A stretch of DNA of 64,000 nucleotides from an uncultured Actinomycetota bacterium (GTDB taxonomy: Bacteria > Actinomycetota > Aquicultoria > JACQXZ01 > CAYGBL01), in the NCBI GenBank assembly GCA_964348135.1, contig CAYGBL010000007.1, positions 9,511 to 73,510 on the forward strand, in the 5' to 3' direction. The notes below the pieces were generated by a model. It searched no databases and was not told the DNA's origin. It worked only from the letters and a program-made list of their open reading frames with translations. Shown one piece after another: positions 1,628-63,191 of the stretch; within the stretch, counting starts at the first letter, position 1, and each line of letters opens with the position of its first letter. The translations under genes and the position numbers were made by a program.

Positions 1628-1846
1628 CTACTTTTTAAGCTTTTGGACTATCTCGCCTGAGTTAGGGAATCTACCCGTTTCGAACCTGGAAAATACTAGC
1701 TTGTTATCCACGATAACGTCAAAGATGCCACCGCTTCCAGGGACCAGTTCCGACTCAACACCAAATGCCTGCCGCAACTCATCTGCCAGACTGGCAGCTT
1801 TGGGCTTATAGTCTCACTCTGTGCAATAGCAGATTTTAACGTCCAT
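1628..1846 (-). CDS. SelW/Rdx-family selenoprotein with in-frame UGA (Sec) at 1816..1814
   Basis: The minus strand reads ATG(1846) MDVKICYCTE-[TGA]-DYKPKAASLADELRQAFGVESELVPGSGGIFDVIVDNKLVFSRFETGRFPNSGEIVQKLKK-TAG(1630..1628). A CxxU motif at the N-terminus is the SelW/Rdx redox-motif signature. A GGAGGTG RBS sits 5 nt upstream of the ATG. Without readthrough the ORF would be only 10 codons, yet the downstream frame stays open and conserved-looking for 61 codons. Confidence 0.7.
1783..1797 (-). promoter_or_regulatory. SECIS-like hairpin 16 nt downstream of the UGA codon
   Basis: CUGCCAG-U-CUGGCAG is a perfect inverted repeat inside the coding sequence immediately 3' of the UGA. That is the usual position of a bacterial SECIS. 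Confidence 0.5.
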
Positions 1847-2069
1847 GATACACCTCCATTTTTCTTTGCTAGTCCTACAAAAACAAAAATGATTTCAGGA
1901 GCTCCGCAATAAGGACTGTATTCTTAGTTTTGACAAACAAAGTCTGGAATCCTCTACGTGTCGAGCGCAAATACGGCCCAGGCATTTTTGCCGGTTCTTC
2001 AAATATAAATTTTTAACAGTGTTTACTTATCATTTTCGGTGACCCGCGGTTTACAAAAACATTATTACC

Positions 2070-2763: not shown

Positions 2764-3216
2764 TTATTCGAAAAGTTTTTTATACTCTCCGTACCCTTCT
2801 TCTTCCAATCTTTCTTTTGGGATGAACTTAAGGGCCGCAGAATTTATGCAATACCGCAGACCAGTTGGCTGGGGGCCATCGTCAAATACGTGCCCTAGAT
2901 GTGAGTCACCACTTCTGCTTCGTACTTCTGTTCTCTCAATAGACAGGCTCTTATCTTCTTTTTCCACCACAGCATCCGGTTTTATCGGTTTTGTAAAACT
3001 CGGCCAGCCTGTTTTAGAATCATATTTATCATGGGAGCTAAAAAGGGGCTCCCCAGTGACAACGTCAACATAAATCCCTTCTCTTTTGTTATCCCAATAC
3101 TCGTTATCAAAGGGTTTTTCAGTTGCGCATTCTTGAGTTACGTCATATTGAAGTGGGTTTAATTTTTTTCTCAATTCTTTATCCGATGGTTTCTCAAACC
3201 TGGATTTCGCACTCAT
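2764..3216 (-). CDS. msrB: peptide-methionine (R)-S-oxide reductase MsrB
   Basis: It carries the RYCINSAAL active-site region and lies adjacent to msrA. Confidence 0.9.
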
Positions 3217-3219
3217 ATC

Positions 3220-3756
3220 TTACCCCCACATTTTTTTGAGATACTGGTCACGCCCAGACCCGGCTCTATATAACTTATATCTTACAGGTCGTTTTTTGTA
3301 GTAATTCTGGTGGTAGTCTTCTGCTTCCCAGAATCCGGTATATTCCCTGATTTCAGTAACAATCCGTTTGTCATACCGTCCTGATTTCTCCAGGGCATTC
3401 CTGGATTCCTCCGCCAGCCGCTTTTGATTCTCGTTATGATAGAAAATAGCTGACCGGTACTGAGAACCTCTATCAGCAAAAGAGCCTTCTTCGTCAGTAG
3501 GATCAATTTGCTTCCAAAAAACATCTAGAAGTTCCAAATAACTCGTTTCACCAGGATTAAAGGTAATTTGAACCGCTTCAACATGGCCAGTTGTACCAGA
3601 AGATACTTCTTCATAGGTAGGCTTTTCCTTGTTGCCACCAGTATACCCGGAGACTATACTCTTTACTCCGGGAAGCTTTTCAAAGGGCTGCACCATACAC
3701 CAAAAACAACCTCCAGCGAAAGTGGCTTTTTCAAGCTTTTCGGAATTATTTTTCAT
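3220..3756 (-). CDS. msrA: peptide-methionine (S)-S-oxide reductase MsrA
   Basis: It carries the GGCFWC active-site motif. Confidence 0.9.
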   Translation of the reverse strand: MKNNSEKLEKATFAGGCFWCMVQPFEKLPGVKSIVSGYTGGNKEKPTYEEVSSGTTGHVEAVQITFNPGETSYLELLDVFWKQIDPTDEEGSFADRGSQYRSAIFYHNENQKRLAEESRNALEKSGRYDKRIVTEIREYTGFWEAEDYHQNYYKKRPVRYKLYRAGSGRDQYLKKMWG

Positions 3757-15254: not shown

Positions 15255-16709
15255 CTACTGACTCTTGGCCAGTTTATCTTTGAGGAGTTTATTAACCATC
15301 TGGGGATTGGCTTTGCCCTGAGTAAGCTTCATTACCTGTCCTACCAGAAAACCCAACGCTTTCTCCTTGCCCTGCTTGAATTCTTCTACCACACTGTTAT
15401 TTTCGGTAATAACCTGTTCTACCAGCTTTGCGATTGCCTGTTCATCACTTATCTGAACCAGATCGAGCTCATCAATTATGATGTGGGGAAGCTTTCCGGT
15501 TTCAAATACCTCCTTGAATACTGTCTTGGCAATCTTCCCACTAATAGTTCCTTTATCCATAAGCTTGAGAAGCTCTACCAGATGCTTGGGAGTAACTGCA
15601 CACTCATCTATCTCCAGATTGGCAGCATTAAGCATTGCCGCTAGCTCACCATTAACCCAGTTTGCAACAATCTTTGCCTTCGAATAACCGCTTACTGCCT
15701 CCTCAAAGAAATCTCCGACTGCTTTCGAGGAAGTTAGAATGCGGGCATCATAAGCGGAAAGTCCAAAATTCTCTACAAACCGTTTAAGTCTGGCATCCGG
15801 AAGCTCAGGAAGGGTATCTTCTAATTCCTTTATCCAAGACCGATCAGGCTCAAGCGGCACTAAGTCCGGTTCAGGAAAGTAGCGGTAGTCATGTACCTCT
15901 TCTTTGGAACGAAGAGGCAAGGTTACATTATTGTCAGCATCCCAATGGCGAGTCTCCTGAACAACCTTTCCTCCTTCTTCCAGTGTCTCTCGCTGACGCT
16001 CGATTTCGTAGCTTAAACCTCTCTGGATAGCGCGAAAGGAATTCATATTCTTTATTTCTGTCTTGGTGCCAAAGACTTCTTCATTATGAATCCGCAAAGA
16101 GATGTTTGCATCACAGCGAAGAGACCCTTGTTCCATATTGCAGTCTGATACCTCCAGGTGTTCCAGGATACTTTTGAGCTTCTGGACAAAAGCTTTCGCT
16201 TCTTCCGGCGAACGGATATCCGGCTCTGTTACTATTTCAACCAGCGGTATGCCTGCCCGGTTAAAATCAACCAGACTATAGTCTGCTCCGCTGATCCGCC
16301 CTGTTTCGCTAATATGGACAAGCTTGCCTGTATCCTCCTCAAGATGGACTCTCGTTATTCCTACTTTGCGAGCGTAGCTGCCCATATCCACTTCAACAAA
16401 GCCATTGGTGCATACAGGCAAATCATACTGTGAAATCTGATAGTTTTTAGGCATGTCGGGATAGAAATAGTTTTTGCGGTGGAATTGGGTAAAGGGTGCG
16501 ACCTCACAGTTTAGCGCAAGGCCAATTTTTATGGTAAACTCTACAGCTTTCTCGTTTATCACAGGTAACGACCCCGGGTAACCCAGGCAGATAGGACAAG
16601 TCTGAGTATTTGGTTTCTCACCAAAGGTAACGGCACAGCCGCAAAACATCTTGCTCTGCGTTGATAGCTCAACGTGTATCTCTAATCCAATTACCGGTTC
16701 GTAGTGCAT
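15255..16709 (-). CDS. gatB: Asp/Glu-tRNA amidotransferase subunit B
   Basis: The N-terminus reads [12 protein letters not shown]. Confidence 0.9.
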
Positions 16710-36014: not shown

Positions 36015-37028
36015 CTAGTTAAAATACTTTTCTCTTATTGCTTTTGAGAGCTGATTGGTCAATTTGTAACTCTTTTCTGCCAGCTCTTCTGACATTGCTC
36101 CGGTCCCACAAGTCGGCATAATCAAGCTTGCTTCAAGCAGTCTCCCAATTTCAAAACCCTTGGAAGCAATAAGCTCTAGTGCCTGATCAAATCTCTCCAG
36201 CAGGCTTTCAATGCTTTCTCTGGCGATCCGATCAGGCTCTGGAAAAGCAGCTGGCACTATGCCCCAGGCAAGAGCCCCTCCTCTGTCCAAGAAGCTTCCT
36301 ATCTCTTTGGGATACAAAGCCAGATTCTTGGTATAATCATATGCATCGAAGTGGATAATATCGGTGCTTGTTTCAGCAATCATACTCCAATCGGTATTGC
36401 CGCAGACATGTACACCCTTCAATCCTTCTAGCTCAGAAAAACACTCGTTTATATATTTAATTACATCTCCTCTGCTCACACTCACATAAGCCGAGCCGTA
36501 AGCCCGCAAATATGGCTCATCCAGAAAAATTATGGTTTGAGCGTCAGGATAAATCTCTTTTAATTTTTTCTCCTGCCAATGCGCCTTTCTTGCCAGAGCT
36601 TTCACCACCGTATCCATAAGTTGCTCATTATATATCACTGCCTGCTTCTTCTCATCTGCAACAGTAAGCCCAAAAGTTATGGGTCCGGTAATCTGACCTT
36701 TAAGCCATTTGACTTCACTTTCTCTTTTTTCCAACTCCTTTAAGAAACAATATAGCCCCTGAGCATAATTCTCGCTTATGCCGAAATAATCAAGATTGCC
36801 AGTGATGTACTTCTCGTAAAATTTTTCTATCTTTGACGTGAAATCTCGAGAAGTATCAAAATATATTTTCTTCTCTTCTTCCTCTACGATGACCCCGGGC
36901 ATACCCTCAGCACATTGAACATACATACTTTCCAGAAATGATCTATTAGGTAGCTGCGGCCATGCTGGTAATTCAGTCAGATTCCCGAAGACAATCCTAC
37001 ATGCTTCTTCAGGGTCTTTGTGGGGCAT
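36015..37028 (-). CDS. uroporphyrinogen-decarboxylase (URO-D) family methyltransferase, MtaA/CmuA-like
   Basis: 337 aa. A putative Zn ligand set is present: HVCG (H-x-C) plus a later MPTCGTG Cys. Confidence 0.5.
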   Translation of the reverse strand: MPHKDPEEACRIVFGNLTELPAWPQLPNRSFLESMYVQCAEGMPGVIVEEEEKKIYFDTSRDFTSKIEKFYEKYITGNLDYFGISENYAQGLYCFLKELEKRESEVKWLKGQITGPITFGLTVADEKKQAVIYNEQLMDTVVKALARKAHWQEKKLKEIYPDAQTIIFLDEPYLRAYGSAYVSVSRGDVIKYINECFSELEGLKGVHVCGNTDWSMIAETSTDIIHFDAYDYTKNLALYPKEIGSFLDRGGALAWGIVPAAFPEPDRIARESIESLLERFDQALELIASKGFEIGRLLEASLIMPTCGTGAMSEELAEKSYKLTNQLSKAIREKYFN

Positions 37029-57548: not shown

Positions 57549-59810
57549 CTATTTAACAGTTGCAAAGGCTTCATTGCTGTAGCCTGATTCTACAACTGTG
57601 CCGCTAGGACAAGTCTTGTAAGCAGTTACCACATAGTAGAAAACCTGCCCAGTCCGCAATTTCGTATCCTTATAAGTAGTTTGAGTGGTACTTGTTATAA
57701 ACGAATATTTTTCATTCTGTGAATAATATACATTGTATCCTTCTGCATCTGTAACTGTATCCCAGGCCAAAGTTATACTCCTCTTGCTGGCAGTAGCAGC
57801 AAGATTCTGGGGTGTAGCAATCGTGCAAGGAGGCTGTGGCACCATTCCGACGCTTGCCATAGCAACCGGTTCTGCTCCTCCGTTATGCAGCCAGAGGTCC
57901 CAGATAGCATTACCCCATCCTTTAAGGTTAGTAAAAAAGGGATCCGTCTGAACGATATAGGCTTGTGGCTCCCCAGAAGGTGTAGGACTAGAAAGAGTGG
58001 TTGCAGTTCCATTTATCTCATCTCTTAAGAACTCAACATAGGGTTTTGAGGTAGTCTGATAGTAAAGTGTCCCATACCAGGAAGCAGTACCAGTTGGTTT
58101 TGTTATAGTCACGTCATCATAGCCGCCAGCATATTCAGCAGAAGTAAAGTAATTAACTGCATCTATACCTTCCCACTTTGGCTGGGCAAATCTTGTGTAC
58201 ATCTCTGGACCTGTATCAAAACCTTTGGGTGGAATTCTGTTATCCTTATAGCGGTCTGTTGCCAGGGCAAAATGGAAGGTCTTCTGCTCACCAGTAAGAT
58301 CAAGGCTGGACATCTCTGCTTCCCAAACCAGCTCCTCAGTCTTTGAGGCAATATCACCGCCAGAGACATAAACTTCATTTCCGCCTGCATCCTGTGTAGT
58401 TACAAGAGGTGCATAAGGATTTATTTCCTCTATGGGATTTCCCGCACTATCGAAGAACTTCACATTGAGGAACATTCTTCTTCCCTCAGGAAAACCTGAG
58501 ATCAGTTTATGACCGGTATTGTTTTTAACCCTTATGGTAGCAGAAGTAGCATCTTCGTTAACTATGCTTAAGGTAGCAGCCATCTCAAGCTGCTGGATCG
58601 ACCTGTCCGCACCATCAAGAAGAGCTTGGGCATATCCTTGTACGCCAGAGACATCTATCTGTGCACCTGCATATTTCTGTCCCGAAAATATGGCATAGTT
58701 ATAGAAGTCGTAAGTAGGGCTGCTGAGATCAACTGATGCCAGCATCTTAAGAATCCACTGATTTCCTCCGGTAAGATCGTGAAGTGGCAGATCAGTCCTG
58801 GTAGGAGCACCCCTCTTATTGCAGCCCAAACCGGTAACATCCCTCATGTGGCAGTCCTGACATTTTGCAGCCCAGGGCACACCTGGTATATCTGCGTCTG
58901 CTCCACCACTTCCATAAGCACTCAAGAGAAATTCACTGGTTGTTCGCTCAACATGGAAATAAGTTTGGGGTGCCTGTCTCTCAGGTACATCTGCACCTAA
59001 GAATACACTGGCAAGAATAGGATTGGAGACATCGTGACAGGAAGAACAAAACCGCTTGCTCTTGTGAGTGCGACTATAGTACATCTGATGTCTTGCTGCG
59101 GCATCAAAGTAAGGACCACTCTTGGCATTTCCCGGATCAACAAAGAACTGCCCTGCTCCATGCTCTATATAATTTGGGAACAATCCATCCAGATAATAAG
59201 TGGGAAGATTAGTATCAACTTCAAGAAAAAGTGTACCGTCAAAAAGAGTCAGATTACTTAAAACACTAAGGTCTCTCAGGTAGGTCTCATAAGCCATGCT
59301 TTGAGCTATGGGATCTGTTTCGGCTGGAAGATCAGGCTGACCTAGTTGGGTAAATGGATCAATCATGCGGTGGCAAAAATCACACTGAACTCCTTCGAAA
59401 TCCTTTCCTGTTAAGGCAGATGTATTGGTAGGATCGCTTCTTCCCTCAAGCCATCCAACGGGTGAATGACACCGTGTGCAGATATCTCCTGCATTGGGGT
59501 TGCCCACAGCCCATATAGAATCCTGATCACTTGCTGTAAGGCAGGCTAGCCAGAGTGGATCTCTTGCTGCTTGAGCCATCATGGAGCCCCTCCAATTATG
59601 ATTAGGCTCAACCCCAGCATTGTAGCCTCCGTGACAGTTATCACATTTATTTGCAGACTCTGAATGGCCTGCTTGACCAGGCTGTGTGCCGGGAATAAAA
59701 ACATTCTGATCATTTTTAACCGGAAGCGGTGTCCACGAGTAAGCAGCATATAAGCCCAGCAATGTAAAAATCAAAACAAGAACTGTTAATCCTACTATTC
59801 TCAGTTTCAT
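57549..59810 (-). CDS. membrane-anchored/secreted pentaheme c-type cytochrome with C-terminal fibronectin type III domain
   Basis: An N-terminal signal or anchor is followed by five CxxCH motifs (CDNCH, CTRCH, CDFCH, CSSCH, CQDCH). The C-terminus is FN3-like (ITLAWDTVTDAEGYNVYYS...YYVVTAY). Confidence 0.75.
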   Translation of the reverse strand: MKLRIVGLTVLVLIFTLLGLYAAYSWTPLPVKNDQNVFIPGTQPGQAGHSESANKCDNCHGGYNAGVEPNHNWRGSMMAQAARDPLWLACLTASDQDSIWAVGNPNAGDICTRCHSPVGWLEGRSDPTNTSALTGKDFEGVQCDFCHRMIDPFTQLGQPDLPAETDPIAQSMAYETYLRDLSVLSNLTLFDGTLFLEVDTNLPTYYLDGLFPNYIEHGAGQFFVDPGNAKSGPYFDAAARHQMYYSRTHKSKRFCSSCHDVSNPILASVFLGADVPERQAPQTYFHVERTTSEFLLSAYGSGGADADIPGVPWAAKCQDCHMRDVTGLGCNKRGAPTRTDLPLHDLTGGNQWILKMLASVDLSSPTYDFYNYAIFSGQKYAGAQIDVSGVQGYAQALLDGADRSIQQLEMAATLSIVNEDATSATIRVKNNTGHKLISGFPEGRRMFLNVKFFDSAGNPIEEINPYAPLVTTQDAGGNEVYVSGGDIASKTEELVWEAEMSSLDLTGEQKTFHFALATDRYKDNRIPPKGFDTGPEMYTRFAQPKWEGIDAVNYFTSAEYAGGYDDVTITKPTGTASWYGTLYYQTTSKPYVEFLRDEINGTATTLSSPTPSGEPQAYIVQTDPFFTNLKGWGNAIWDLWLHNGGAEPVAMASVGMVPQPPCTIATPQNLAATASKRSITLAWDTVTDAEGYNVYYSQNEKYSFITSTTQTTYKDTKLRTGQVFYYVVTAYKTCPSGTVVESGYSNEAFATVK

Positions 59811-62516: not shown

Positions 62517-62936
62517 CTAGAAATAATAATGAAATATCAAGTCCAGCCTTCCGTGCTTGATTAGATAAGACCCAGAGAACCTCATTACCTCTCGAATCTT
62601 CTCCCGGTAAAAGGGTTTATAGCAATGAGTGGGACACTTCTTGCACATCGGTTTAGGATCGTAGGGACACTTCAAGCGCATTACTATTCCGTGGGAAAGA
62701 AGTCGAGTGCAATCTTCGCAGAGTAGCGGCTCTTTCTTAAAAACGGCAGGGTCAAAATTTTTAAAAGTGAACGCAGATTTATCTTTAATTCTATGATTCC
62801 GACGGCAATAAATATTAATAAAATCGCCTAATACTATAATTTCTTTTTCTATCTTGTCATCTATCTTCTCAGTTATCTTCAAAGTTCTCCAGTTTGAATA
62901 ATTGGACTTAGAGGATTTGTTTCTTCCACTCTCCAC
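62517..62936 (-). CDS. Cys-rich protein, possibly of the nitrous-oxide-stimulated-promoter family (YgbA/NosP-like)
   Basis: 139 aa with the motifs CEDCTRL...CPYDPKPMCKKCPTHCY. The match is weak. Confidence 0.35.
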   Translation of the reverse strand: MESGRNKSSKSNYSNWRTLKITEKIDDKIEKEIIVLGDFINIYCRRNHRIKDKSAFTFKNFDPAVFKKEPLLCEDCTRLLSHGIVMRLKCPYDPKPMCKKCPTHCYKPFYREKIREVMRFSGSYLIKHGRLDLIFHYYF

Positions 62937-62939
62937 TTT

Positions 62940-63191
62940 TCACTTCTCATTCTTCACTCTCTCTTCCATATATCTTTCATAAGTTTCCTCACCTAAACAC
63001 TCCCTGGCCCACTTGCACCATTCTATGCAAGATGGAGGCATGTCTCTTGAGACCTTTTTGCCACAATTATGACACATAGCTTTACCCTCATCAGACCAGA
63101 TTTCTACCTCACCGTGACAGTGCGGACATTCTGTACTTTCTGGTACTGGCTGCTTTATTAATTTTGATCCTGGACAAGAGAAATCAGCCAT
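62940..63191 (-). CDS. small zinc-ribbon protein
   Basis: It carries CPHCHGEVEIWSDEGKAMCHNCGKKV plus CIEWC. Confidence 0.4.
   Translation of the reverse strand: MADFSCPGSKLIKQPVPESTECPHCHGEVEIWSDEGKAMCHNCGKKVSRDMPPSCIEWCKWARECLGEETYERYMEERVKNEK

Follow-up and report, generated by a model that had tools for sequence, protein, structure and literature searches.

An in-frame UGA and a covarying downstream hairpin point to an unannotated SelW-like selenoprotein gene in an uncultured Actinomycetota-like bacterium

SelW-like proteins with a CxxU motif have been known since 2004-2005 and constitute the most abundant family of selenoproteins in marine prokaryotes (PMC1088965, PMC2398784). In the GOS data, where they were the most abundant, 427 selenocysteine (Sec) forms were counted against 56 Cys homologs (PMC2398784). 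Members have also been described in Geobacter, Desulfotalea, Desulfotomaculum, Alkaliphilus and Symbiobacterium, and the small number of Cys homologs was read as an indication that Sec is the original residue (PMC1794560). A redox role was inferred for these proteins from the CxxU motif and from the thioredoxin-like fold (PMC1088965). In C. jejuni, selW is unannotated and had been mistaken for an sRNA; its translation past the UGA was demonstrated by Ribo-seq and mass spectrometry (PMC11955535). Bacterial SECIS elements are described as lying directly 3' of the UGA and as having a small apical loop in which a guanosine is conserved (PMC1088965). In the E. coli fdhF element, G23 and U24 of the loop are conserved, and the contacts of SelB are made with G23 and with the bulged U17 (PMC8659212).

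Here we describe a locus of this type in a stretch of 64 kb, referred to below as the window. The minus strand of the window carries the following features.

1628..1846, minus strand: coding sequence of the proposed SelW-like (Rdx family) selenoprotein, 72 codons including one in-frame UGA, plus the TAG stop
1851..1857, minus strand: Shine-Dalgarno sequence GGAGGTG, read from the sequence, 4 nt (TATC) before the ATG
1846-1844, minus strand: start codon ATG
1829-1831, minus strand: codon of an extra Cys6, two residues before CxxU (C6-Y-C8-T-E-U11)
1823..1825, minus strand: Cys8 codon TGC, first residue of the CxxU redox motif, aligned with the first Cys of CxxC in 2fa8 and 3dex
1814..1816, minus strand: in-frame UGA, proposed selenocysteine, residue 11; TGA is found at the homologous codon in 80/80 sequences
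1783..1797, minus strand: proposed SECIS hairpin, with the 5' arm CUGCC at 1797-1793, the loop AGUCU at 1792-1788 and the 3' arm GGCAG at 1787-1783
1630-1628, minus strand: stop codon TAG

The earlier note on this DNA had proposed a minus-strand frame of roughly 72 residues beginning with MDVKICYCTE and a UGA, preceded by a strong ribosome binding site and open for 61 codons past the UGA. All of this could be read directly from the sequence, and the translation agrees: ten sense codons (MDVKICYCTE) precede the TGA, and 61 sense codons (DYKPKAAS...QKLKK) were counted from there to the TAG. The GGAGGTG at 1857-1851 stands at a 4-nt spacing from the ATG, and GGAGGGG occupies the equivalent position in the closest distinct homolog, a locus from a JGI metagenome designated L085 (85% amino-acid identity). 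We put at about 90% the probability that this frame is a real, intact bacterial gene whose 72-residue product is a selenoprotein of the SelW-like (Rdx) family. Direct support for this reading comes from the profile matches that define the family, from a UGA kept among homologs, from a hairpin that covaries, from purifying selection across the UGA and from the fold, assessed on a 65%-identical homolog; each is presented below.

For profile searches, a Cys was substituted at the UGA. The Pfam Rdx profile PF10262, which the earlier note had suggested searching with a C at the stop position, matched residues 3-71 with 75.6 bits (cut-off 22.6; E = 3.7e-21), and this match spans the UGA. The protein also scored 63.4 bits against TIGR02174 (CXXU_selWTH), for which the curated cut-off is 34.2, and 92.6 bits against the NCBIfam equivalog NF041051 (SelTWH_Campy), for which it is 88. 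The assignment to the SelW/Rdx family made in the earlier note is therefore upheld by three profiles, PF10262, TIGR02174 and NF041051, whose curated cut-offs are all exceeded.

Sequence matches in the PDB comprised the bacterial SelW-related proteins 2fa8 (Atu0228), 3dex (SAV_2001), 2ojl, 2oka, 2obk and 2p0g, together with MIEN1 (2ljk) and mouse SelW (2npb). The window protein resembles these structures in its predicted fold and in the place of the CxxC/U motif. In the alignments to 2fa8 and 3dex, the two cysteines of CTQC fall opposite C8 and the UGA position, so that the CxxU redox motif announced by the earlier note is borne out, with U11 aligned to the second Cys of CxxC in the solved Rdx proteins. 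The motif, C8-T-E-U11, comes directly after the first β-strand, and YCxxU is kept in homologs. By contrast with the window protein, the bacterial Rdx structures carry a Cys at the Sec position, have a length of about 100 residues and show a W replacing the S/G of the SECIS loop. Unlike the window gene, mammalian SelW uses a SECIS of the eukaryotic type located in the 3'-UTR (PMC1088965).

The fold was assessed on the AlphaFold model of a homolog, P0002, which is 65% identical to the window protein. This model reached a pLDDT of 95.5 and comprises the elements E3-8, H14-28, E32-37, E42-46, E49-53 and H65-71, corresponding to a β-α-β-β-β-α arrangement in which the CxxU motif lies between strand 1 and helix 1. 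Foldseek superposed it on 2fa8 with a TM of 0.91 and an rmsd of 1.1 Å and on mouse SelW with a TM of 0.66; the superposition is weaker on mouse SelW and on thioredoxins than on 2fa8. Judged on this 65%-identical homolog, the window protein is predicted to adopt the same thioredoxin-like β-α-β-β-β-α fold.

The protein is close to the SelW-like proteins from the Sargasso Sea/GOS data, Geobacter sulfurreducens, Desulfotalea psychrophila and Desulfotomaculum reducens, which likewise have about 70-80 residues and an N-terminal β-strand followed by CxxU. As in the catalogued SelW-like selenoproteins, the UGA is in frame, a SECIS-type hairpin lies directly 3' of it and close Cys homologs are few (PMC1088965, PMC2398784, PMC1794560). 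The window gene differs from the catalogued ones in its host, which appears to be an Actinomycetota-like anaerobe, uncultured and equipped with a Wood-Ljungdahl cluster, and in its Cys6, which produces the arrangement C-x-C-x-x-U. None of the 79 parsed homologs described below has this arrangement (position 6 is occupied there by H, R, Q, N, K, T, E, I, D, V or F), and the Cys is shared by the strain variant L081, whose contig is 99.6% identical to the window. Through NF041051 and the published description, the protein can also be likened to C. jejuni SelW (CJnc60 transcript), the gene being unannotated in both cases, although that of C. jejuni encodes 80-81 residues and belongs to a distant phylum.

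Homologous loci were obtained by scanning one genome per species with C-terminal peptide patterns, which returned 472 relatives, of which the best 80 loci were kept. Since the loci were picked by their C-terminal peptide, the search was unbiased toward TGA. Among these best 80 of 472, a TGA preceded by Y/F-C-x-x was present at the homologous codon in every one of the 79 loci that were parsed (79/79). They come from Chloroflexota, Acidobacteriota, Planctomycetota, Verrucomicrobiota, Desulfobacterota, Gammaproteobacteria and other groups, and together with the window they form the set of 80 sequences used hereafter.

The closest sequences gave a more direct measure of constraint. In the strain variant L081, the UGA is kept and the gene differs from that of the window at codon 72 only. 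In L085, the ribosome binding site, the UGA and the hairpin are all kept. The comparison of the window with L085 over the whole frame (NG86) gave dN = 0.082 and dS = 0.695, a dN/dS of about 0.12. Thirty-one codons differ between the two genes, 20 of them synonymously (including a TAG-to-TAA change of the stop) and 11 non-synonymously, and the single change that falls within the hairpin codons is located in the loop, leaving the stem untouched. These values indicate that purifying selection acts on both sides of the UGA. The earlier note had envisaged that homologs might reveal a region past the UGA that is not conserved as protein; the constraint observed relative to L085 on both sides of this codon argues otherwise.

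The earlier note had also anticipated that ORF finders would truncate or miss the gene, and this is what was found. The mechanical ORF list contains only a 49-aa fragment with a TTG start at this place (1628..1777), and the near-identical NCBI contig (GCA_012975005.1; locus L081 2786-3267) has a gene-free annotation at the homologous place. The protein database holds 33 close relatives (P0001-P0033), of which seven, P0001-P0006 and P0014, are full length and bear a Trp exactly at the UGA position; the remaining ones start just past the UGA. Most of the 33 are thereby N-terminally truncated, with 43-60 residues. It should be noted that public gene calls of SelW-like homologs are systematically wrong, with either a Trp at the Sec codon, a truncation or no call at all.

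Taken at face value, the W in these public calls would favour a UGA decoded as a standard amino acid, either by a reassigned code (UGA read as Trp or Gly) or by near-cognate read-through, in which case the protein would not be a selenoprotein. The best explanation of these calls, however, is the use of code 4 or 25 by gene callers on short contigs. In this genome UGA serves as a normal stop: among the 50 long ORFs of the window, 10 are closed by TGA, and translation with table 11 leaves the long ORFs intact. A reassigned code is therefore excluded. Moreover, the position aligns with the catalytic Cys, not with a Trp, in the solved homologs, and the covarying hairpin with an invariant loop G right after the codon, detailed below, is a signature of SelB-dependent decoding. 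We consider it very improbable that a standard amino acid is inserted at this codon, and the UGA is treated below as a Sec codon.

Downstream of this codon, the earlier note had reported a perfect hairpin at a distance of 16 nt. The palindrome, CTGCCAGTCTGGCAG at 1797-1783, does start 16 nt past the TGA, but the proposed geometry, 7 bp around a loop of a single nucleotide, is ruled out on steric grounds. In the foldable form, C1797-C1793 pair with G1787-G1783 (5 bp, loop AGUCU, -8.0 kcal/mol), and an alternative fold that includes an A1792-U1788 pair has 6 bp, the loop GUC and -8.4 kcal/mol; the real loop is thus of 5 (or 3) nt. The pairing probability of the hairpin is 0.99 (context +4..+50) and the loop is positioned 21-25 nt after the UGA. 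In the bSECISearch criterion, the apical loop lies roughly 16-37 nt from the UGA, a range into which this loop falls.

The palindrome by itself is not beyond chance. The window contains nine 7+1+7 palindromes, compared to about 5 in shuffles, as well as 89 perfect hairpins with 5 bp and a 5-nt loop. In this respect it is unlike the protein match (Rdx, E = 3.7e-21, across the UGA) and unlike the sharing of both the TGA and a covarying hairpin, identically placed, by 79/79 parsed loci, which are far beyond chance. Folding of a 61-nt segment showed no excess of stability over its own shuffles (z = 0.14), and the minimum free energy structure of this segment omits the hairpin. An Rfam scan of 1500-2100 by E-value and a scan of the whole 64-kb window at the gathering threshold gave no match to the hairpin, and in the latter no Rfam family was recovered. 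As single-sequence folding is unremarkable, the case for a SECIS element was built on covariation.

The 60 nt from the UGA onward were aligned for the 80 sequences, gap-free, with columns counted from the U of the UGA. Between columns 19-24 and columns 30-35, 92.3% of cells are paired. Changes on both sides were observed at 4 of the 6 stem pairs (32 cells), and the covariation score was reached by none of 500 shuffles. When the partner was slid by 1-3 columns as a control, pairing fell to 22-62% of cells. The pair 21/33, which joins two synonymous third positions, is CG in 58 sequences, UA in 8, GU in 6, GC in 4 and UG in 3, and the pair 24/30 is CG in 71, UA in 5, AU in 2, GC in 1 and UG in 1. 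The pair 22/32 is mismatched in 16 of the 80 homologs and becomes U-A in 4 sequences through a coupled change of Ala to Ser and of Ala to Glu (UCC with GAG). The pair C20-G34 never varies across the 80 sequences. RNAalifold independently predicted the same helix. The loop follows the consensus RGUYU (N-G-U-N-U), with AGUUU in 28, GGUCU in 26 and AGUCU in 15 of the 80 sequences; no variation occurs at G26 or U29, and U27 is kept in 77/80 (~96%).

Because the conserved peptide Ala-Ala-Ser/Gly-Leu-Ala is encoded by self-complementary codons (GCN GCN RGY YUN GCN), the hairpin might be a by-product of the protein sequence, with no function at the RNA level. The stem is indeed made of Ala codons and its pairing follows in part from the peptide, as exemplified by the invariant C20-G34, and the ordinary folding energy and the chance occurrence of comparable palindromes in the window are in line with such an origin. 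By contrast, it does not account for the covariation of the synonymous third positions 21/33 through five different pairs (CG, UA, GC, GU, UG), for the replacement of amino acids in compensating pairs (UCC with GAG), for a covariation score that none of the shuffles reaches, or for the drop in pairing seen in the slid controls. Furthermore, Cys-type homologs carry another peptide, RAGWMAQ or RAAWLAQ, where the Sec forms have AAS/GLA. We give almost no credit to a by-product of codon usage. Since the Cys-type peptide differs at the hairpin site, it appears that the peptide of the Sec forms is shaped by the RNA element.

The SECIS role assigned to the downstream hairpin by the earlier note is thus supported by a stem that covaries and by a loop G-U that is invariant or nearly so over the 80 sequences. 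On this comparative evidence, the hairpin can be taken as a genuine bacterial SECIS element, to which SelB is predicted to bind. It resembles the E. coli fdhF element, which is also a hairpin of the coding region just after the UGA, with a small apical loop that exposes a conserved G-U (PMC8659212). The two differ in that G26/U27 of the window lie one codon farther from the UGA than G23/U24 of fdhF, and in that the window stem is perfectly paired over 5-6 bp, with no equivalent of the bulged U17 and no convincing lower stem. The bulged U17 is a feature of the E. coli hairpin and is not known to be universal among bacterial SECIS elements.

Upstream of the SelW-like gene and on the same strand, the order is msrA-msrB, a terminator-like hairpin and a VOC/glyoxalase gene, the first of these being located as follows.

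3756..3220, minus strand: msrA, forming a tight pair with msrB
3216..2764, minus strand: msrB, followed by the terminator-like hairpin
2715-2695, minus strand: terminator-like hairpin after msrB

At none of the 80 related loci were MsrA, MsrB or VOC genes found beside the homolog. As this neighbourhood, one of oxidative-damage repair, is not conserved, the adjacency seen in the window is no evidence of a functional link. Across the same 80 loci no neighbour family recurs, and the neighbourhood gives no hint of a substrate.

The window is bacterial, as it encodes an NAD-dependent LigA and GatA/GatB. The best named relatives of GatB (15255-16709), at 62-73% identity, belong to uncultured Actinomycetota (Aquicultor, Oleimmundimicrobium and other MAGs). 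Placed by GatB, the host is probably nearest to uncultured anaerobic Actinomycetota with a Wood-Ljungdahl cluster. A complete bacterial cluster for this pathway occupies 29377-54674 on the minus strand and contains Fhs, FolD, MetF/MetV, AcsA-E, AcsV and CooC, together with a Fur-family regulator, AcsD/AcsC-like subunits, CooS, a bifunctional ACS and a GltD/HdrA-like oxidoreductase. Two sizeable minus-strand ORFs of the window are without a Pfam match: that at 57549-59810 (753 aa), for which NCBIfam gives no match either, and that at 36015-37028 (337 aa), which is located inside the Wood-Ljungdahl cluster, between a CooC-like ATPase and a NuoE-like subunit. The best homolog of the SelW-like protein in a named genome (locus L001) belongs to Dehalococcoidia/Chloroflexota, with 73% identity. 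The discrepancy between a GatB of Actinomycetota type and SelW relatives from Chloroflexota may reflect horizontal transfer of a small gene, or sparse sampling only.

Formate dehydrogenase is the commonest bacterial selenoprotein. In the window, FdhA is part of the Wood-Ljungdahl cluster and is a protein of 898 aa, fused to NuoG-like N-terminal domains and adjoining NuoE-/NuoF-like subunits; its Sec site is occupied by a Cys (ARLC353HAST), in agreement with the earlier note. The 50 ORFs of the 64-kb window contain no SelA, SelB or SelD domain, and the window has no tRNA gene, tRNA-Sec included. Nor was a tRNA-Sec found beside homologs in the 42 loci scanned. Further selenoprotein genes were looked for in the window as read-through ORFs in gaps and as TGA-flanked extensions of long ORFs, and none was found. 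Two TGA-flanked extensions that had been flagged are not selenoproteins. A Cys-rich ORF of about 83 aa (62940-63191, minus strand) has the CPxC...CxxC motifs that are typical of zinc ribbons. Its TGA stop is separated by one codon from a gene of the YgbA_NO family (62936..62517) in the same frame, which suggested read-through, but selenoprotein features are absent.

The lack of machinery genes, of a tRNA-Sec and of a second selenoprotein gene in the window, the Cys-type FdhA, and SelW homologs from Chloroflexota where GatB is from Actinomycetota (a pattern compatible with horizontal transfer) are what would be expected if the gene were a relic. It would then have been inherited or acquired horizontally by a host whose Sec machinery was lost or never present, and translation would either stop after 10 residues or produce the 49-aa fragment from the TTG at 1777. 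However, 64 kb is a small share of a genome, and so the four or five machinery genes are expected to be absent from the window. In addition, the start codon, the ribosome binding site, the CxxU motif, the UGA, the hairpin and the full frame are all intact. Relative to the 85%-identical homolog, dN/dS is about 0.12, synonymous changes prevail and the stem is unchanged, and the gene of the second strain is identical save for one C-terminal codon. A relic is, in our opinion, improbable. A pseudogene, a reassigned UGA and a hairpin arising from codon composition were all rejected, on the basis of the intact and selected frame, of the TGA stops and of the covariation, respectively, and an active selenoprotein gene is retained as the preferred reading. 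Since this gene is intact and under selection, we infer that the host probably possesses the Sec-decoding trait (selABCD).

In the mechanism that we propose, translation would begin at the ATG downstream of the strong Shine-Dalgarno site. At codon 11 the UGA would escape being read as a stop, the hairpin located 16 nt 3' presenting the G-U of its apical loop. This element would bring the elongation factor SelB, charged with selenocysteyl-tRNA(Sec), to the ribosome, leading to insertion of selenocysteine in the host. The product would have a thioredoxin-like fold with Cys8-x-x-Sec11 in the loop that links strand 1 to helix 1, and the Cys8/Sec11 pair would most likely alternate between the selenol/thiol and the selenenylsulfide states, as in a small thiol-dependent oxidoreductase. 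We know of no substrate described for any bacterial SelW-like protein.

The gene adds to a well-described family, one of the commonest among bacterial selenoproteins, and leaves the knowledge of selenoproteins unchanged. It is mildly unusual in its extra Cys6 and in that a Sec-type SelW occurs alongside a Cys-type FdhA in an Actinomycetota-like host with a Wood-Ljungdahl cluster. Its value is chiefly one of annotation, as the limits of a selenoprotein gene are correctly set at a place where standard callers report nothing or a 49-aa fragment. In addition, the 80-sequence set is a clean illustration of a SECIS element constraining a coding sequence to Ala-Ala-Ser/Gly-Leu-Ala, and it could seed a family-specific covariance model, Rfam being without a matching one.

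Regarding the organism, the gene flags the host genome as that of a probable selenocysteine user. Because FdhA is of the Cys type and no other selenoprotein was found in the 64 kb, one may speculate that this deep-branching Actinomycetota-like host with a Wood-Ljungdahl cluster keeps the costly Sec apparatus mainly or only for the SelW-like protein, and that the lineage-specific third thiol of C6-x-C8-x-x-U11 could be a built-in resolving cysteine, a proposal that we hold to be unlikely. If true, such a minimal selenoproteome would be a clean natural system for the function of bacterial SelW-like proteins.
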